34,267 nt of DNA from an uncultured Lachnospiraceae bacterium (GCA_964478105.1 CAYZHW010000001.1:1-34267), one strand, 5' to 3'; positions 10,698 through 18,913 are shown, numbered from the stretch's first letter. Numbers and translations are program-made. Notes: generated from the sequence alone by a model not told the origin.

Positions 10698-11343
10698 AAA
10701 AGAGAAAAAAGAACGGATCGCAAAAATAGGCGAAGAGTTGAAAAAGCTCTATCCCGATGCCGAGTGCGCTCTCGAATACGGCGGCCAGCCGTGGAAATTG
10801 CTCATTATGGGCAGACTCTCGGCGCAGTGCACCGACGCAAGGGTGAACATCGTCTGCCGAGAGCTGTTTAAGAAATATCCCACGCTTGAATCGGTGGCAA
10901 ACTGCTCTCTCTCTGAGCTTGAGGAAGCGGTCAAACCCTGCGGACTTTACCGCACCAAGGCAAAGAATATCAAGGATTCGGCAATTATGCTGATAGAGGA
11001 ATACGGCGGAGTGCTTCCCGACGATATGGATGAGCTTTTGAGGCTGCCGGGTGTCGGACGAAAGATAGCAAATCTTTTGCTCGGGGATATCTTCGGCAAG
11101 CCTGCGATCGTCGCAGATACACATTGCATAAGACTTTGCGGCAGATTCGGTATGTATCCCGAGAGTCAAAAAGACCCGACCAAGGTCGAGAAGATACTCG
11201 TTGAGTTGGTCGAGCCTTCCGAGAGCAGCGACCTCTGTCACAGACTTGTGCTCTTCGGGCGCGAATACTGTATGGCGCGCTCGCCGAGGTGCACCGAATG
11301 TCCCATACAACATCTATGTGAAAGGAATATAAAAAGCAAATGA
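10690..11343 (+). CDS. nth: Endonuclease III (DNA glycosylase/AP lyase)
   Basis: HhH 'LPGVGRKIANLLLGD' and the [4Fe-4S] loop 'C-MARSPR-C-TE-C-PIQHL-C'. ATG at 10690 with a GAGGAG SD. The longer ORF from 10444 overlaps mrdA out of frame and is rejected. Confidence 0.9.
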   Translation: MNKKEKKERIAKIGEELKKLYPDAECALEYGGQPWKLLIMGRLSAQCTDARVNIVCRELFKKYPTLESVANCSLSELEEAVKPCGLYRTKAKNIKDSAIMLIEEYGGVLPDDMDELLRLPGVGRKIANLLLGDIFGKPAIVADTHCIRLCGRFGMYPESQKDPTKVEKILVELVEPSESSDLCHRLVLFGREYCMARSPRCTECPIQHLCERNIKSK

Positions 11344-12581
11344 GTGACATCAAAGACATAAGCCTTGCCAAGAGCGGCTACGATAAGATAAACTGGGTAA
11401 AAAGCTATATGCCCGTGCTCAACGCAATAAACGACGAATTTACAAAGACCAAGCCCTTTGCGGGCAAAAAGATATCGATGTCGATACACCTTGAGGCAAA
11501 GACGGCGTATCTTGCGATGGTGCTCCGTAACGGAGGCGCAAAGGTGTGCGTGACGGGATGCAATCCTCTCTCAACGCAGGACGACGTAGCGGCGGCGCTC
11601 GTAGATGCGGGATTTGAGGTAAATGCGCGCCACGGTGCATCAGAAGAGCAGTATACGGCTCACTTGAAGGCGACGCTCTCACAATGCCCCGATCTTATAA
11701 TAGATGACGGCGGAGATTTCATCTCGCTTCTTCACGGAGAGTGCCGCGAGTACGGAAAGGATCTTATCGGCGGATGTGAGGAGACCACAACGGGTATCCA
11801 CCGTCTCTTCGCGCGTCAGGCGAAGGGCGAGCTCGATTACCCGATGATAGATGTAAATGATGCTGACTGTAAACATCTTTTCGACAACCGCTACGGTACC
11901 GGACAGTCGACACTCGACGGTATTATGAATTCGACCAACCTTATCATCGCGGGCAAGACGGTAGTCGTCGCGGGCTACGGCTGGTGCGGCAAGGGAATCG
12001 CTATGCGTGCTAAGGGTATGGGCGCGCTCGTCGTTGTCACCGAGATAGACCACGTAAAGGGTATCGAGGCTGTTATGGACGGATTCCGTGTTATGCCGAT
12101 GGACGAGGCGGCAAAGATAGGCGACCTCTTTATTACGGTCACGGGATGCTCGGACGTTATTCGCGGCGAGCATTTTGATGTGATGAAGGACGGCGTTCTG
12201 CTCGCAAACAGCGGACATTTCGATGTTGAGATAGACAAGAAGGCACTTGCGGCGCGCGCGGTGCTCGTGCAGGATCGCAAGCCGAACATTGTCGGTTACC
12301 GTATGCGTGACGGTCGAGTGCTCAACCTGCTCGCAGAAGGACGCCTTGTAAATCTCGCGGCAGGCAACGGACATCCCGCCGAGATAATGGATATGAGCTT
12401 TGCCATCCAGGCGAAGGGACTTGAATATCTTGCAAAATGCGGCAAGATACTTGAAAATAAGGTCTACGCCGTACCGCGCGAGATCGATGAGGCTGTGGCG
12501 AGAATGAAGCTTGCAAGCTTCGGCACGAGTATCGACACACTCTCACAAGAGCAGAAGAAGTATCTTGAATCTTATAATTGA
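11340..12581 (+). CDS. ahcY: Adenosylhomocysteinase
   Basis: 413-aa ORF with 'DISLAKSGYDKINWVKSYMPVL' and the NAD site 'VVVAGYGWCGKGIA'. ATGA overlap with the nth stop. Confidence 0.95.
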   Translation: MSDIKDISLAKSGYDKINWVKSYMPVLNAINDEFTKTKPFAGKKISMSIHLEAKTAYLAMVLRNGGAKVCVTGCNPLSTQDDVAAALVDAGFEVNARHGASEEQYTAHLKATLSQCPDLIIDDGGDFISLLHGECREYGKDLIGGCEETTTGIHRLFARQAKGELDYPMIDVNDADCKHLFDNRYGTGQSTLDGIMNSTNLIIAGKTVVVAGYGWCGKGIAMRAKGMGALVVVTEIDHVKGIEAVMDGFRVMPMDEAAKIGDLFITVTGCSDVIRGEHFDVMKDGVLLANSGHFDVEIDKKALAARAVLVQDRKPNIVGYRMRDGRVLNLLAEGRLVNLAAGNGHPAEIMDMSFAIQAKGLEYLAKCGKILENKVYAVPREIDEAVARMKLASFGTSIDTLSQEQKKYLESYN

Positions 12582-12585
12582 TGAC

Positions 12586-12620
12586 AAAGAGGCATACCGC
12601 GGTATGCCTCTTGATTTTTT
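12586..12620 (+). terminator. Rho-independent terminator after ahcY
   Basis: 'aagaggcatacc-gcg-ggtatgcctctt' stem followed by 'gatttttt'. Confidence 0.8.
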
Positions 12621-12632
12621 ACGGTATAATTG

Positions 12633-12661
12633 TTGACCTTGATTTGGAAATAATATATAAT
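12633..12661 (+). promoter_or_regulatory. Sigma-70/SigA-type promoter for the ATPase-TOPRIM pair
   Basis: TTGACC (12633-12638), a 17-nt spacer, then TATAAT (12656-12661). GGGAG SD at 12682-12686 and ATG at 12693. Confidence 0.6.
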
Positions 12662-12692
12662 TAAAATACAGATATTATTTTGGGAGCGGTAT

Positions 12693-14039
12693 ATGAAGAA
12701 TACTATTGTCAGACTTTTATGGTGTCAGCTTGAAAATTTCAAAAATGTCGAATACGGCAAACTCGAGATGCCTGACTTTTTTTCGCGCAAAGAGCCGGTC
12801 GGCGCCGAGATACTCGGTCTGTACGGACAAAACGGCTCGGGAAAGACAGCTATCATCGATGCGCTGAGCTTTCTCTCGGCGCTTCTTTCGGGCGCGCCCC
12901 TTCGCGCGGATACCGCTGATTACATCACCAAGGGTGAGCAGTGCGCGACTCTGAAGTTTGCTTTTTCGGCGGAGACCGAAAAAGGGAGCTTTTTTGCCGA
13001 GTATCTGTTTTCACTCTCGCGCACGGGTGACTCTTTTGAGATCTCGCGCGAGAGGCTTATATCTGCTCCTATTGAAGATACAAAAATCGGGAAAAGGACG
13101 ACCCTGCTCGAGCACAGCACCGAGAGCCCGTCGCTTTTGCTGCCAAAGGCAAGACTTGCGTCGCTTCTTGCGGCAGATAAGGATAACAGAGTCGCGCTTG
13201 AGGTTGCAAAGATAATCGCAAAAAAAGAAAAGACCTCATTTATATTCGGCGGCGGCAAGGAGATATTCCTATCGGGCCTTGAAGACGTGCAGGCAACGGT
13301 CATATCCGCGCTTGCCGATTTTGCGAAAAAATCGCTCTTTATAATAAAAAATACAAAAAATGAGGATTTTGTGCTCCCTGTATCGGTCAAGATCGAGCCT
13401 GCAAATGCAAGTACCACGGCTAAGCTCCTTGTCGAGCCTGCCGTGATCGACGAGGCGAGCCTGCCGAGCTTTTCGGGAAGCGTTGCCAGCCTTAACCGCG
13501 TGCTCGGTGTGTTGATACCGGGACTGTCGGTGGATATCGAAAATTACGGTGCTCAGATGATGAGTGACGGTACGGCGGGCGCAAAGATCGAGCTCGTCTC
13601 CTTGCGCGACGGCAAGCGGATCCCGATAAAATACGAGTCCGAAGGCATCCGCAAGATAATATCGGTACTTAACATTATGATCGCGATGTACAATGACCGC
13701 TCGGTCTGTATGGTGGTCGACGAGCTTGACGCCGGCATATACGAGTACCTTCTCGGCGAGCTTCTTTCGATCCTTGAGGAAAGCGGCTCCGGACAGCTTA
13801 TATTTACTTCGCACAATCTGCGTCCGCTTGAGATGATAGACCGAGATGCGCTTGTGTTTACGACAACAAATCCCAAAAACAGATATATTCGTCTCGGCGG
13901 CGTGAAAAAGGGAAATCTGCGCGACATTTATCTGCGCAGTATCAACCTCGGCGGACAGAAGGAGCAGATATACGATCTTTCAAACAGCTTTGAGATAAGC
14001 CACGCTATGAGGCTTGCGGGTATGAAGGATGAAAAATAA
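12693..14039 (+). CDS. ABC-type (AAA_21/AAA_15, SMC/OLD-like) ATPase, AriA/AbiLi-like
   Basis: Walker A 'GQNGSGKT' (aa 45-52), signature-like 'ESEGIRK' (aa 315-321), Walker B 'CMVVDELD' (aa 339-346) and H-loop 'FTSHN'. About 260 aa are inserted between Walker A and the signature. Confidence 0.85.
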   Translation: MKNTIVRLLWCQLENFKNVEYGKLEMPDFFSRKEPVGAEILGLYGQNGSGKTAIIDALSFLSALLSGAPLRADTADYITKGEQCATLKFAFSAETEKGSFFAEYLFSLSRTGDSFEISRERLISAPIEDTKIGKRTTLLEHSTESPSLLLPKARLASLLAADKDNRVALEVAKIIAKKEKTSFIFGGGKEIFLSGLEDVQATVISALADFAKKSLFIIKNTKNEDFVLPVSVKIEPANASTTAKLLVEPAVIDEASLPSFSGSVASLNRVLGVLIPGLSVDIENYGAQMMSDGTAGAKIELVSLRDGKRIPIKYESEGIRKIISVLNIMIAMYNDRSVCMVVDELDAGIYEYLLGELLSILEESGSGQLIFTSHNLRPLEMIDRDALVFTTTNPKNRYIRLGGVKKGNLRDIYLRSINLGGQKEQIYDLSNSFEISHAMRLAGMKDEK

Positions 14040-14697
14040 GACAAAAAAGGTAATACTTTTTATTGTCGAGGGCTTTACCGACAAACAGTCACTCGGCCTT
14101 GTCCTCTCGCGCCTTATCGACACGAATGAGGTGATGTTTCACGTCGTTGCGGGCGATATCACAGCCGCGTACAAAGCCGAAAAGAAGATAAGCGAGCAGA
14201 TAAAGTCGTTTCTGTCGCGCACGCATTTCAAGAAGAGCGACATCCTTCGCATCGTCCAGCTTATCGACACCGACGGGGCGTTTATCGATCCGTCGAAGGT
14301 GCGGTATGCGAAGATTAAGAGGATGAGGTATTTCGACGATCACGTAGAGACCCCCACGCCCGAGGCGATAATCAGACGAAATGAGCTGAAACGTGATTCA
14401 GTGCAGGAGCTTTCACATCAGAATTATGTCTCGGGAATACCGTATTCGATATACTATTTTTCGGTGAACATAGAGCACGTGCTCCACGGCGTGCGCGGCG
14501 GTCTGGAATCGGCGGACAAGGTGAGACTTTCACGCGAGTTTATTGACCGATTTGCCGCCCGCCCCGAAGACTTCGTCAAATTTATGAGAAGCGACGAGGT
14601 CGCCGCTCCGGGAGATTACATTGACAGCTGGGATCATATCTTCAAAGATGATAATTCACTTATGCGAAATTCGAATTTCAGGTTGTTTTTTAATTAA
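14029..14697 (+). CDS. TOPRIM-fold protein (RloB/AbiLii- or DUF4435/AriB-like), putative nuclease partner
   Basis: Overlaps the ATPase gene by 11 nt. 'KKVILFIVEGFTDKQS' supplies Glu14 and 'VQLIDTDGAF' supplies Asp80/Asp82, giving the TOPRIM E...DxD pattern. Followed by 'YYFSVNIEHVLHG'. Confidence 0.7.
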   Translation: MKNKTKKVILFIVEGFTDKQSLGLVLSRLIDTNEVMFHVVAGDITAAYKAEKKISEQIKSFLSRTHFKKSDILRIVQLIDTDGAFIDPSKVRYAKIKRMRYFDDHVETPTPEAIIRRNELKRDSVQELSHQNYVSGIPYSIYYFSVNIEHVLHGVRGGLESADKVRLSREFIDRFAARPEDFVKFMRSDEVAAPGDYIDSWDHIFKDDNSLMRNSNFRLFFN

Positions 14698-14718
14698 GCC
14701 GGTGAAAAGGGTAATAAA

Positions 14719-15600
14719 ATGAAAAAAGTCCTTGTTATAGTCAACCCCATTTCGGGTAAACAAAAATTGAAGAACGAGCTTTTGGAGCTTGTTGCATTTC
14801 TTTGCAAGAGCGGATATGCGCCGACCGTGATGACAACCGAGCGCAAAGGACACGCGACCGCCCTTGCGCGCGAGCACGCCGATGGGTATGATCTTGTCAT
14901 ATGCTGCGGCGGCGACGGCACGCTCGGTGAGGTCATCTCGGGTGTTATCGGCAAAAAGTCCACGACACCGCTCGGATACATTCCGTCGGGGACGACGAAC
15001 GATTTTGCCAACAGCTTAAAGATCCCGTCCCAAACGCTCGAGGCGGCAAAAAGAGCGGTTACGGGTTATCCCACCAAGCTTGATATAGGCAGATTCGGGA
15101 CGTCGTATTTTACCTACGTGGCAAGCTTCGGTGCATTTACCAGCTCATCCTATTCCACGCCCCAGCCAAACAAGAACGCCATAGGGCATCTTGCTTACGT
15201 GCTCGAAGGGGCGAAGGACCTCTCATCCCTGCGTCCGTATCACCTGAAGGTGAGCGCAAACGGCAGGGTGTACGAAAACGACTACATTTTCGGAGCTGTA
15301 AGCAATTCGCTTGTAGTCGGCGGACTTATCAGAATGAATAATGCAACCGTCAAGTTCAGCGACGGACTTTTTGAGGTGATGCTCATAAAATTCCCCTCGG
15401 GACTCGACAGCCTCTCAAAGATAGTCGCCTCTCTGCAGTCGCAGAAATACGATCCCGAGGTCATAGATTTCTTCCAAGCCGAGAAGCTTACGGTTGAGTG
15501 TGAGGAAAAATTCCCTTGGTCGCTTGACGGTGAGTACAATCCCGGAAACGAGAAGATAGACATCTCGGTGCAAAAAAAGGCTATAAGCTTGAACTTATAA
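14719..15600 (+). CDS. dagK: Diacylglycerol kinase family lipid kinase (DgkB/YegS family)
   Basis: 'VLVIVNPISGK', 'CCGGDGTLGEVISG' and 'GYIPSGTTNDFA'. It aligns by eye along its length with the S. aureus DgkB sequence as I recall it. Starts 22 nt after the TOPRIM gene with no terminator between them. Confidence 0.8.
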   Translation: MKKVLVIVNPISGKQKLKNELLELVAFLCKSGYAPTVMTTERKGHATALAREHADGYDLVICCGGDGTLGEVISGVIGKKSTTPLGYIPSGTTNDFANSLKIPSQTLEAAKRAVTGYPTKLDIGRFGTSYFTYVASFGAFTSSSYSTPQPNKNAIGHLAYVLEGAKDLSSLRPYHLKVSANGRVYENDYIFGAVSNSLVVGGLIRMNNATVKFSDGLFEVMLIKFPSGLDSLSKIVASLQSQKYDPEVIDFFQAEKLTVECEEKFPWSLDGEYNPGNEKIDISVQKKAISLNL

Positions 15601-15630
15601 AAAAACCGCCCATCGGGCGGTTTTGTTTTT
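15601..15630. terminator. Bidirectional intrinsic terminator between dagK and the PHP gene
   Basis: 'aaaaaccgccc-atc-gggcggtttt gttttt': a GC stem flanked by an A-run and a T-run, between convergent genes. Confidence 0.75.
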
Positions 15631-15631
15631 A

Positions 15632-16558
15632 TCAATTATAAATGGGATTTGTCCAAGCGCGGCGGCCGAACGCATCTACAACGCAGACACGCATCATTTC
15701 GGGCTGAACGCTCATTTTGTAAGAAGCGCTGAGCGACGCACCCGTGCTCTGTCCCATAAGGGTGTTAGCCTGTCTGTCGCGGATGAGCCATACCTTTGCC
15801 GCACCGGTCGTCTCGACGTGAACGGTGTTTGTGTCGGTGTCAAAATAGAAATCCTTGATGATAGGACCGCAGGACGAATAGAACGCGCCTTCGTTGAGTG
15901 CTGCAAGCACCGACTTGACATTCTTTTCTGCGTTTACCATTACCCAGCCGCGGCCGAGTGTTCCGCGTCCGTGAGCATCGTCGGTAGCAACGCCGAAGAG
16001 GCGGTTACCGTATGCTATGACCTCGTTCCAGTACGCCGCGTTCGTGTCCATATCGTGCGCGTAAGCCGAACCGGAGTTCCAGATCTCCATAGCAAAATTG
16101 CCCTTGAAATCCTGGAAATACTTTGCGGGCGTGCGGCTCCACTCGGGATGGCAGTATATGGTCATATTGTTCTTTTTGTGCATCTCGTCAAGCAGATCCT
16201 GGAAGACAGAGAGATCTGTTATGTCGGGGCCTGCGACAAATTCATCGTGGGCAATGCCGTTTGTGTCGTCGTCGGGACCGAGCACGATGGTGTGGAGATG
16301 GCGGATGCCGCCTGCGGTCTTGTCAAACTGCATATTTATCTCCATCGCGGGTATGATCACGATGCCTGTTTCGGGCGCGTAGTTTACCCTGTTATATTTC
16401 TGATGGTCTGTGATGGCTACAAGGTCATAATTCTCCTCTGCATAAGCGTGGAGAAGCTCTTGGGGAGCGAGCTTTCCGTCGGATCTTGTGGTGTGGCAGT
16501 GAAGGGCGACCTTCTGCATCTTTTTCGCATTCTCAAAGGCTTTTTGTCTGATTATCAT
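15632..16558 (-). CDS. PHP-domain metal-dependent phosphoesterase
   Basis: 'VALHCHTTRSDGKLAPQELLHAYAEENYDLVAITDH' is the PHP motif. The equally long antisense ORF 15623-16609 has no motif and starts with TTG. Confidence 0.8.
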   Translation of the reverse strand: MIIRQKAFENAKKMQKVALHCHTTRSDGKLAPQELLHAYAEENYDLVAITDHQKYNRVNYAPETGIVIIPAMEINMQFDKTAGGIRHLHTIVLGPDDDTNGIAHDEFVAGPDITDLSVFQDLLDEMHKKNNMTIYCHPEWSRTPAKYFQDFKGNFAMEIWNSGSAYAHDMDTNAAYWNEVIAYGNRLFGVATDDAHGRGTLGRGWVMVNAEKNVKSVLAALNEGAFYSSCGPIIKDFYFDTDTNTVHVETTGAAKVWLIRDRQANTLMGQSTGASLSASYKMSVQPEMMRVCVVDAFGRRAWTNPIYN

Positions 16559-17424: not shown

Positions 17425-17922
17425 ATGGCTCTCTTTCACCCGATCAAACCCGTATATAATAAAGATTCACGCATACTCATCCTCGGAAGCTTCCCGTCGG
17501 TAAGATCCCGTGAGACAGGTTTTTTCTACGGGCATCCGCAAAACCGATTCTGGCGTGTGCTTGCCAAGGTTTTTGAATCTGCCGTTCCCGAGACCGTAGA
17601 AGAGAAAAAGGAGTTATTACTCTCACACGGCATAGCGCTTTGGGATGTGGTAGCCTCGTGTGAGATCGTCGGAAGCTCGGACAGCTCTATAAAAAACGTG
17701 ATACCTAACGATATATCGGCCATCCTTTGCGGATCGGATATCGAGGCGGTATATGTCAACGGTAAGACTGCGTACAGTCTGTACCGCAAATATATTCTGA
17801 CAAAAACAAAAAAAGAGGCGGTGTGCCTGCCCTCGACCTCTGCCGCGAATGCCGCGTGGGATATACCGCGTCTGACGGCTGCCTGGTCAAAGATAAAGGA
17901 GGTGTCCTATGGGCGCAGATAA
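17425..17922 (+). CDS. UDG-superfamily DNA-deoxyinosine (hypoxanthine) glycosylase-like protein
   Basis: 'ILILGSFPSVRSRETGFFYGHPQNRFWRVL' and 'LPSTSAANA' match the pattern I recall for the hypoxanthine-DNA glycosylase family. Starts 1 nt after the DUF45 stop. Confidence 0.75.
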   Translation: MALFHPIKPVYNKDSRILILGSFPSVRSRETGFFYGHPQNRFWRVLAKVFESAVPETVEEKKELLLSHGIALWDVVASCEIVGSSDSSIKNVIPNDISAILCGSDIEAVYVNGKTAYSLYRKYILTKTKKEAVCLPSTSAANAAWDIPRLTAAWSKIKEVSYGRR

Positions 17923-18913
17923 AACAGAAAAGCTTTCGCAGATACGCTCGGACAACTTTCTGGTGCTCCGCATATACAGCACGCTCATAAACGAGGGTAT
18001 GCCCGAGGATGCTGCAGAGCTTATAGGGGGCATCGCGCGCGATGCCGATATAAGTGAAGAGCGGGCGTTTGCGGCGCTTTTGTCGGCGTTTTGCAATTTT
18101 GACTCGGATGAGGACCCCCACGATCTTGTGATCGAGCGTGAGTATTTTTCGCATATCAAAAAGCTCTCAAGCATTCCTTATGAAAATGACCCCTACTACA
18201 AAAATATAAAATTCCCGAATATAAGCTCGGGCAGATGGCAGATGGGACGCGAGAGCTACCGTCCGTACGAGCCCTTTGTGTGGCGCGATATCGTGCTGAC
18301 GGACGAGTTCCGCGAAATACCGCAGATAGGTTTTTTCGCAGAATCGTTTTCTTTCCCGGCGGTCTTTGAGGACGGCAGGGAATGGATGGCGATAAAGCCA
18401 AACGAGATCGAGACTATGCGCGCTCCGCTTGAGGCGGTGTCGGGAGATGTGCTCACGTACGGCCTCGGGCTCGGATATTTTACATATATGGCGAGCCTTA
18501 AAGACGAGGTGAGGAGCATCACGGTGGTCGAGCGCGACCCCGAGATGATCGGACTTTTTAAGGAGCATATCCTGCCGCAGTTTGCCTATGCCGACAAGGT
18601 GAAGATCGTTTGCTCGGACGCCTTTGAGTATGCAGAAACGAGAATTAAGAACGAGCATTTCGATTATGTTTTTGCCGATCTGTGGCACGACGCTTCGGAC
18701 GGATTTGATATGTATATCCGCTTAAAGCGCCTTGAGAAGAACAACGCGGGCGCAAAATACCTCTATTGGATAGAGGATACGCTCCTCTCGCGCCTGCGCT
18801 GGATGGCATATGATGCGCTTGTTGCAAAGGGCTTGTCAGACTCTCAGATACGCGAGTGCCTTGAGAGCGCATACCTAAAGAAATTGGCGTACGACCTCAA
18901 AAGACAAATATGA
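17909..18913 (+). CDS. Hypothetical protein with class-I SAM-methyltransferase / spermidine-synthase-like C-terminal fold
   Basis: AAGGAGG SD. Overlaps the previous gene by 14 nt. 'VLTYGLGLGYF' (GxGxG), 'ITVVERDPEM', 'VCSDAFEY' and 'DYVFADLW' follow the Rossmann MTase layout. The N-terminal ~170 aa are unrecognised. Confidence 0.55.
   Translation: MGADKTEKLSQIRSDNFLVLRIYSTLINEGMPEDAAELIGGIARDADISEERAFAALLSAFCNFDSDEDPHDLVIEREYFSHIKKLSSIPYENDPYYKNIKFPNISSGRWQMGRESYRPYEPFVWRDIVLTDEFREIPQIGFFAESFSFPAVFEDGREWMAIKPNEIETMRAPLEAVSGDVLTYGLGLGYFTYMASLKDEVRSITVVERDPEMIGLFKEHILPQFAYADKVKIVCSDAFEYAETRIKNEHFDYVFADLWHDASDGFDMYIRLKRLEKNNAGAKYLYWIEDTLLSRLRWMAYDALVAKGLSDSQIRECLESAYLKKLAYDLKRQI

Follow-up and report, generated by a model that had tools for sequence, protein, structure and literature searches.

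The DNA analysed here is a stretch of 34,267 nucleotides (nt) from an uncultured Lachnospiraceae bacterium (GCA_964478105.1, CAYZHW010000001.1:1-34267), referred to below as the window. Between ahcY (11340–12581; Pfam AdoHcyase, 2.8e-54) and the lipid kinase gene dagK (14719–15600, + strand; DAGK_cat and YegS_C domains, Pfam 1.7e-34) lies a module of two genes. The first (12693–14039, + strand) encodes an AbiLi-like ABC ATPase of the AAA_21/OLD-like type with a length of 448 amino acids (aa), and the second (14029–14697, + strand) encodes a TOPRIM-like protein of 222 aa and about 25 kDa, hereafter the partner; ahcY and dagK are outside the module. We consider it rather probable that the pair is a self-contained sensor–effector defence module of the OLD/PARIS/AbiL kind. 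An earlier reading of this DNA, made from the sequence alone, had described the two open reading frames (ORFs), their 11-nt overlap (14029–14039, + strand, from the ORF coordinates) and the motifs of both proteins. All of these were found where that reading had placed them, and the motifs proved invariant or nearly so among 60 ATPase and 64 partner homologues. Both ORFs are real genes, with homologues numbering hundreds to thousands.

The left limit of the module is the intrinsic terminator of ahcY (12587–12612, + strand), a perfect inverted repeat of 13+13 nt forming an 11-pair stem followed by a T-run, which lies outside the module proper. Behind it stands a sigma-70-type promoter, TTGACC-N17-TATAAT (12633–12661, + strand), that matches the consensus at 11 of 12 positions and ranks best among 16 promoter-like sites in 5.8 kb. 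This near-consensus promoter had been pointed out in the sequence-only reading; its hexamers and spacing are kept in loci L002, L103 and L104, so that it is conserved across four loci, one of them with a different upstream gene. A Shine-Dalgarno sequence GGGAG (12682–12686, + strand), read from the sequence, precedes the ATG of the ATPase gene by 6 nt, and the 11-nt overlap of the two genes implies, to judge from their arrangement, that their translation is coupled. No terminator-like site was found in the 21 nt that separate the TOPRIM stop codon (14697) from the start of dagK (14719), as had been claimed, and the sole promoter-like site upstream of dagK, with a score of 9/12, is inside the TOPRIM gene. 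A strong terminator (15602–15624, + strand; 10 pairs, including 6 G-C, then a T-run) separates dagK from the convergent PHP gene (15632–16558), which adjoins it, and is predicted to close an ATPase–TOPRIM–dagK transcription unit.

The ATPase carries a Walker A motif GQNGSGKT (aa 45–52; 12825–12848), an ABC signature-like motif ESEGIRK (aa 315–321; 13635–13655), a Walker B motif with D-loop CMVVDELD (aa 339–346; 13707–13730) and an H-loop FTSHN (aa 371–375; 13803–13817), all on the + strand. Across the 60 homologues, which were 43–82% identical, the invariant residues comprised G45–T52 in Walker A, E315, G318, I319 and K321 in the signature, D343, E344 and D346 in the Walker B/D-loop segment, and F371–N375, including H374, in the H-loop. 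Family membership was judged by hidden Markov model (HMM) scans against Pfam, NCBIfam and PADLOC, together with Foldseek structural searches. The Pfam AAA_21 score was 50.7 bits, the cut-off being 27, and SMC_N was matched at its threshold. The AlphaFold2 model of the protein (pLDDT, the predicted local distance difference test, 80; predicted TM-score, pTM, 0.83) gave 177 PDB matches at E ≤ 1e-3, headed by Rad50 (5e-13), the retron/Septu protein PtuA (1e-12) and SMC heads, with E values of the top matches from 5e-13 to 1e-10. The earlier assignment to ABC ATPases of the AAA_21/OLD-like type is borne out by these matches.

The best PADLOC defence model for the ATPase was AbiLi (PDLC02335, 1.7e-27), aligned over profile positions 47–263 of 326 only, and it was followed in the ranking by AriA, mad3, PDC-M07A and HEC-01A. 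AbiLi was likewise the best PADLOC model for all 60 relatives, with E values down to 9e-32. The AriA model PDLC02980 was matched by the query at 2e-13 and by 60 of 60 relatives, always more weakly than AbiLi, while mad3 was matched by 58 of 60 and HEC-01A by 52 of 60 (8.6e-8 for the query). In NCBIfam, MADS3 scored 19.6 bits against a cut-off of 420, and the best match, recF, reached 28 bits against a cut-off of 172 at the N-terminus only. When the PDB was searched by sequence, the partner profile and the ATPase retrieved at most noise (integrin I-domains). On both sequence and model, the first protein is securely assigned as an ABC ATPase with AbiLi as its nearest named relative, and its role is presumed to be that of sensor and scaffold.

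One further segment of the ATPase, aa 403–425 (13899–13967, + strand), is conserved near the C-terminus, with invariant N408, L409, R410, Y413, R415, I417, G420 and E424. Despite these many invariant residues, its pLDDT is below 50 in the AlphaFold2 monomer model. Such a combination of invariant residues and low pLDDT is typical of segments that fold only upon partner binding. We propose aa 403–425 as a candidate interface with the partner or between ATPase subunits. A 652-aa sequence in the homologue set (P0125) was considered as an ATPase–TOPRIM fusion and rejected, being an ATPase homologue with an internal duplication; the duplicated stretch of about 150 residues covers the signature, Walker B and H-loop region and represents either a tandem duplication or an assembly artefact.

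The partner contains three clusters of conserved residues. The first, E14-G-F-T-D18 (14068–14082, + strand), provides the TOPRIM glutamate and a second acidic residue four positions on; the second, D80-T-D82-G83 (14266–14277, + strand), is the TOPRIM DxD motif, directly after strand β3, and is invariant; the third, S145-V-N147-I-E149-H150-V-L-H153 (14461–14487, + strand), directly follows strand β4. Among the 64 homologues, which were also used for individual HMM scans, G15, D43, D71, D80, D82, G83, S145, N147 and H153 were invariant, and E14, D18, E149 and H150 were conserved in at least 90%. The AlphaFold2 model of the partner (pLDDT 90.6, pTM 0.87) has the strand order β1(7–13)-α1-β2(35–41)-α2-β3(72–80)...α3-β4(137–144), with E14 directly after β1 and D80xD82 directly after β3. 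This is the TOPRIM signature, as described for DUF4276 and RloB (PMC12065111).

The same residues parallel the metal-binding pattern of OLD nucleases. In Ts OLD, metal A is bound by E377/D431/D433 and metal B by D381/S478/E480, and the E377/D381 pair corresponds to E400/E404 in Bp OLD (PMC7049728). The partner presents E14-x3-D18, D80-x-D82 and S145/N147/E149, which parallel the metal A and metal B ligands. By analogy with S478/E480 of Ts OLD, the S145/N147/E149 region may supply the second-metal ligands. At the level of sequence profiles, hhalign of the ATPase family profile against P2 Old gave a short motif-level match that was not significant, with a probability of 10%.

A word-indexed search with the partner returned 333 matches, the source names inspected all being "hypothetical protein", and the members were about 225–240 aa long. 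When 1.84 billion cluster representatives (clusters at 50% identity) were searched with the profile, 1,907 were retrieved at E ≤ 1e-3, of which 703 were at E ≤ 1e-30. In the individual scans, 33 of the 64 partner relatives matched DUF4276 (PF14103), all below the curated cut-off; DUF4276 is described as a TOPRIM family equal to Mad4 (PMC12065111). The best relative reached E 3.6e-6 and 27.8 bits, below the gathering cut-off of 30.2, and the inspected alignments all began at strand 1 and covered roughly the first 90 of the 192 profile positions, which is the N-terminal half. Toprim was matched by 17 and OLD-like_TOPRIM by 6 of the 64 relatives, weakly and below cut-off. In PADLOC, HEC-01B was matched by 8 of 64 (best E 1e-3; the query had no match) and mad4 by a few relatives at about 1e-3. 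None of the 64 matched AbiLii, tested at E ≤ 1, or AriB in PADLOC, and none matched any NCBIfam model. RloB (PF13707) was not among the 25 listed Pfam families common to the partners; DUF4435 (PF14491) was absent from the families common to the 64 relatives and was not matched by the query. The searches for DUF4435 and RloB that had been suggested in the sequence-only reading were accordingly negative for the partner. In Foldseek, the top PDB match of the partner model was chain 8ux9_A of the PARIS complex (E 6e-3, TM-score 0.19), followed by a TOPRIM-containing topoisomerase II, and the top viral match, in BFVD, was an RloB-like phage protein (E 7e-3, probability 0.94).

The TOPRIM assignment made earlier fits the residues and the strand order. 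The significant HMM or structural match that the earlier reading asked for is reached only marginally: the query had none among the HMMs, its relatives stopped at 27.8 bits against 30.2, and the structural matches stayed at 6e-3 to 7e-3. We retain the TOPRIM call because several weak lines agree, with no single strong one among them. From sequence and model together, the partner is probably a TOPRIM-type metal-dependent nuclease, remotely similar to DUF4276 and outside the named families.

The association of the two genes is consistent across the relatives. In 23 of 23 relatives with sufficient sequence 5' of the TOPRIM gene, the gene directly upstream and on the same strand is that for the ATPase, and overlaps of 8–17 nt recur in loci with gene calls (L085–L088, L090, L098 and L099). 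With growing distance of the relatives, ATPase and partner lose identity at a matching pace (ATPase/TOPRIM, 82/79, 64/65, 45/46, 38/39 and 24/23%). The dN/dS ratios relative to the closest relative were 0.09 for the ATPase gene and 0.07 for the TOPRIM gene, compared with 0.06 for ahcY; since dS was saturated, these values are approximate. They point to purifying selection on both genes of the pair.

PARIS, AbiL, Mad3-4 and HEC-01 are grouped by Burman et al. as ABC ATPase plus TOPRIM systems. The layout seen here, an ABC ATPase gene and a separate TOPRIM gene, agrees with the parallel to PARIS and AbiL drawn from the sequence alone, and also with Mad3-4. PARIS, assigned to class 4 OLD-like systems, shares with the pair an AAA_15/21-type ABC ATPase and a standalone TOPRIM protein; AriA models are matched by all ATPase relatives, and the best PDB match of the partner, although sub-threshold, is a chain of the PARIS complex. 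Unlike the partner, AriB has a mass of about 35 kDa and is of the DUF4435 type, and the AriA scores of the ATPase are below its AbiLi scores. Mad3-Mad4 (MADS) and HEC-01 resemble the pair in their small TOPRIM proteins of about 190–240 aa that are DUF4276-related. The partner, in contrast to Mad4, remains below the DUF4276 cut-off and aligns over the N-terminal half only; moreover, the pair is outside a MADS methyltransferase locus, and there is no Hma system. With HEC-01, the ATPase matches HEC-01A, whereas HEC-01B is matched weakly by the few partner relatives mentioned above and not by the query. The OLD nucleases (P2 Old, Ts and Bp OLD, GajA) combine the same two activities, and their pattern E-x3-[DE], DxD and [ST]..E after β4 is apparent here too, but in class 1/2 OLD proteins and GajA the domains are fused in one polypeptide, whereas here they are split over two genes. 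Unlike Gabija, the pair has no UvrD-like GajB partner.

The closest named system is AbiL of Lactococcus, in which a gene for a Rad50-like ABC ATPase, AbiLi, is followed by a separate TOPRIM gene, AbiLii. The pair could be a true AbiL member if the available AbiLii/RloB models were too narrow to recognise the partner. The uniform AbiLi ranking of the ATPase and its 60 relatives, the RloB-like phage protein at the head of the viral structural matches of the partner, and the identical two-gene layout (PMC13064643) are what such membership would predict. Yet none of the 64 partners matched AbiLii even at E ≤ 1, the Pfam family common among them is DUF4276 (33/64) rather than RloB, the AbiLi alignment leaves profile positions outside 47–263 uncovered, and a tblastn search of the ATPase against 72,556 plasmids returned no lactococcal record. 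We give this explanation a small chance of being correct. As judged from the profile searches, membership in PARIS, AbiL and Mad3-4 fails on the partner, and the HEC-01B model is scarcely matched.

The pair occurs in various genomic contexts. In Tepidibacter it is located within an integrative and conjugative element (ICE), beside a type I restriction-modification system, and in Neobacillus (L085) beside a ThiF/JAB cluster with a Y1 transposase downstream. In C. baratii the pair is found at a prophage-like region, and in Lacrimispora it is flanked by housekeeping genes. Both genes are carried by six plasmids, in two of which they lie beside a recombinase or an IS256 element, as well as by the Clostridioides phage-plasmid pCD1602_4, and the pair was found on four contigs of IMG/VR. 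Defence genes show this kind of distribution, patchy and in part on mobile elements. The Neobacillus cluster (L085 1476–4941), about 3.7 kb upstream of the pair, consists of genes for a ThiF (E1-like) protein, a 178-aa protein, a Prok-JAB protein and an 89-aa protein; its resemblance to ubiquitin-like (Bil-type) defence loci suggests a defence island. A separate observation concerns the megaplasmid of E. eligens (NC_012780; L089 5001–6754), on which an ATPase gene whose product is 37% identical adjoins an IS256 transposase; no TOPRIM partner was detected for it. The 350 bp or so that follow it are unannotated, and this may be a decayed copy.

Presence on plasmids, an ICE and a phage-plasmid would also be expected of a toxin–antitoxin (addiction) module with the TOPRIM nuclease as toxin and the ATPase as its neutraliser. 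Such a module would be kept since its loss is lethal, and would stabilise plasmids and ICEs with no dedicated anti-phage role. The overlapping genes couple the pair as tightly as this explanation requires, the AAA_21 entry in Pfam speaks of a putative AbiEii toxin from a type IV toxin–antitoxin system, and PARIS itself behaves in a toxin–antitoxin-like manner (PMC13064643). However, the pair is stably inherited at one chromosomal locus under strong purifying selection on both genes, whereas pure addiction modules in chromosomes tend towards decay, and the characterised relatives with the same architecture are all defence systems. We judge a pure addiction role to be unlikely, while noting that addiction and defence are not mutually exclusive.

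The neighbours of the module in the window are of the housekeeping type throughout. It is preceded by thiI, proA/B, a U32 peptidase gene, mreB/C, PBP2, nth and ahcY and followed by dagK, the PHP gene, genes for a YgjP-like peptidase, blaI/blaR1 and an ABC transporter; a UDG-like gene is also among the housekeeping neighbours. No integrase or transposase was found across the 34-kb window, which confirms the earlier description of a housekeeping neighbourhood with no mobility genes. Among the window neighbours checked, no methyltransferase gene was adjacent to the pair and no helicase gene was found nearby. A 334-aa ORF at 17909–18913 had no Pfam match; it is uncharacterised and conserved, being 70% identical in loci L101 and L102, where it keeps synteny with the PHP and YgjP-like genes.

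The history of the locus was traced in related genomes. A scan of 80 ahcY loci with 60–80% identity in species-representative genomes (uncultured Clostridia, Oscillospiraceae and others) found the pair in none of them, and it is not universal in the wider clade, where universality would have spoken for a housekeeping role. The same 80 loci also had no dagK, nth or PHP gene nearby; the neighbourhood is not syntenic at that distance, and the loci are therefore uninformative on an empty site. A metagenome scan with dagK recovered only relatives at 44–45% identity. What proved informative were loci retrieved by exact look-up of close homologues. In the closest relatives, L103 and L104, ahcY is 93% identical; in L103 it is followed by the same promoter, the ATPase gene (82%), the TOPRIM gene (79%), a terminator and the convergent PHP gene (77%). 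The gene dagK is absent there, the TOPRIM gene leading to its own hairpin terminator and then directly to the PHP gene (L103 2662–2726). In the more distant L101 and L102, with the PHP gene at 73% and the YgjP-like gene at 61%, the pair is 63–64% identical and adjoins the PHP gene again. The PHP, ATPase and TOPRIM genes of these two loci (L101 7665–10684 and L102 4183–7202) all run in the same direction, the pair being inverted relative to the PHP gene as compared with the window. The locus downstream of the PHP gene is either a rearranged ancestral site or a recurrent landing site.

Another relative, L002 (TOPRIM 74%), has its module behind nitroreductase and iron alcohol dehydrogenase (Fe-ADH) genes, versus ahcY in the window. 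DNA homology to the L002 module extends from 12627 to 14690 (+ strand), with blastn matches at 12627–12879 and 13515–14690. Since this homology begins at 12627, just 5' of the -35 box, the promoter belongs to the module and moved with it. To judge from these alignments, the unit that moved together consisted of the promoter, the ATPase gene and the TOPRIM gene, and the pair has moved at least once among near relatives. The L002 ATPase gene has an in-frame TAA at codon 17 (L002 2031–2085) and is started later by gene callers, giving 420 aa; it is possibly a pseudogene, or the stop codon may be a sequencing error in the metagenome-assembled genome. As regards the ends of the module, a 13-nt direct repeat, TATAATTG(A/T)TGAC, at 12573–12585 and 12625–12637 brackets the ahcY terminator, its second copy lying at the left edge of the module homology, and a 13-nt AT-rich inverted pair is located at the module ends (12658–12670 and 14684–14696). 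These repeats were considered as an insertion scar and rejected, both pairs being close to chance expectation in 2.4 kb.

The sequence-only reading had presented the pair as an islet inserted between ahcY and dagK. The gene order in the closest relative, where the pair follows ahcY and faces the PHP gene with dagK absent, speaks against this. Given its conserved position and the lack of an anomaly in G+C content, the pair has long resided at the ahcY/PHP locus within a narrow clade, and a recent insertion is not demonstrable. By the gene order, the variable gene at this locus is dagK and not the pair; it is either extra in the window or was lost from the lineage of L103. The interval between the TOPRIM and PHP genes of the window (14698–15631) is taken up by dagK, which has neither promoter nor terminator of its own. 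It is most simply transcribed from the module promoter, since it occupies just the space from the TOPRIM stop codon to the shared terminator. The suggestion in the sequence-only reading that dagK may depend on read-through from this promoter is thereby strengthened, and such dependence is very probable from the arrangement of the signals, with no terminator intervening.

A number of observations weigh against a defence module of the OLD/PARIS/AbiL kind. The partner query had no Pfam, NCBIfam, PADLOC or PHROGs match at E ≤ 0.1 beyond noise, Foldseek with its model gave nothing at E ≤ 1e-3, and hhalign of the partner against P2 Old was motif-level only (FIVEGFTD ~ LLVEGKTE), with a probability of 1.6%. 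The TOPRIM assignment has no individually significant match by curated thresholds. HEC-01 is the only PADLOC candidate whose second-gene models are matched by the partner relatives, weakly (about 1e-3), and when first tested it was not protective (bioRxiv 10.1101/2024.01.29.577857). In one study, a HEC-01 pair consisting of an ABC ATPase with a TOPRIM protein protected E. coli (PMC12881386); the evidence on HEC-01 activity is mixed. No second defence gene was found in the 34-kb window, and the G+C content is uniform, about 0.50 inside and outside the module, with no compositional anomaly. The neighbours are housekeeping genes, close relatives have kept the position of the pair, and its operon includes a gene of the housekeeping type. 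The native G+C content, neighbours, position and dagK also fit a domesticated or non-defence role.

One such role would be that of a clade-specific housekeeping pair for repair or processing of host DNA, comparable to RecF (an ABC ATPase) with RecR (a TOPRIM protein), or to Rad50/SbcC with a nuclease. Besides the native G+C content and the presence of nth, UDG-like and PHP genes nearby, this explanation could draw on recF as the best NCBIfam match and Rad50 as the best PDB fold of the ATPase, on the position kept in close relatives, on the predicted co-transcription with dagK and on dN/dS ratios as low as that of ahcY. The recF match, however, amounts to 28 bits against a cut-off of 172 and is confined to the N-terminus. 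The pair is missing at 80 related ahcY loci, and elsewhere it occurs in unrelated contexts and on mobile elements. Furthermore, the TOPRIM domain of the RecR type is non-catalytic, whereas the full acidic set is conserved in the partner. We consider a housekeeping repair role quite unlikely.

The analysis itself shows the gene structure with its promoter, the coupling and strict pairing of the two genes, the identity of the ATPase, two active sites that look competent, purifying selection and a distribution like that of defence genes. For a sensor–effector defence module, characterised relatives offer a mechanism. In PARIS, AriA sequesters AriB, a viral protein triggers its ATP-dependent release, and AriB cleaves tRNA-Lys (PMC11464382). 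P2 Old is a tRNase in which opening of the oligomer exposes the TOPRIM site (bioRxiv 10.64898/2026.07.10.737580). By analogy, we infer for the pair an anti-phage function, complex formation, a trigger and a substrate, as follows. The ABC ATPase would dimerise or oligomerise via its Rad50/SMC-like head and would keep the small TOPRIM protein, whose amount would be tied to its own by the gene overlap, inactive in a complex. Infection or foreign DNA would be sensed in an ATP-dependent manner through some signal, for example a phage protein or an abnormally structured nucleic acid, and this would free or open the TOPRIM active site, formed by E14/D18, D80/D82 and S145/N147/E149 and presumably of the two-metal type. 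The nuclease could then cut tRNA, by analogy with AriB and P2 Old, or else DNA, and the infected cell would be arrested.

A more specific proposal, which we put forward tentatively, is that the pair represents a distinct unnamed family of split OLD-like immune systems, composed of an AbiLi-like ATPase and a minimal TOPRIM nuclease of 25 kDa that goes unrecognised by Pfam, NCBIfam and PADLOC. The family is widespread in Bacillota, with about 1,900 clusters on chromosomes, plasmids, ICEs and phage-plasmids, and in the present lineage it would have been fixed at one locus long enough for dagK to depend on its promoter.

Both the architecture and the probable mechanism have precedents, and current ideas are not overturned; the pair is most aptly described as an AbiLi-like ATPase combined with an unclassified minimal DUF4276-like TOPRIM partner. 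The HMM sets used for finding defence systems currently miss this family of about 1,900 sequence clusters, and the NCBI records inspected call the partner only "hypothetical protein". The dagK arrangement offers a minor example of how a gene of the housekeeping type can come under the promoter of a defence-like module. If active, the pair would extend the ABC-ATPase/TOPRIM immune systems by a compact branch in Gram-positive bacteria, with the smallest effector of the group, and would be a convenient model for asking how an ABC ATPase gates a TOPRIM nuclease and whether the target common to these systems is tRNA.

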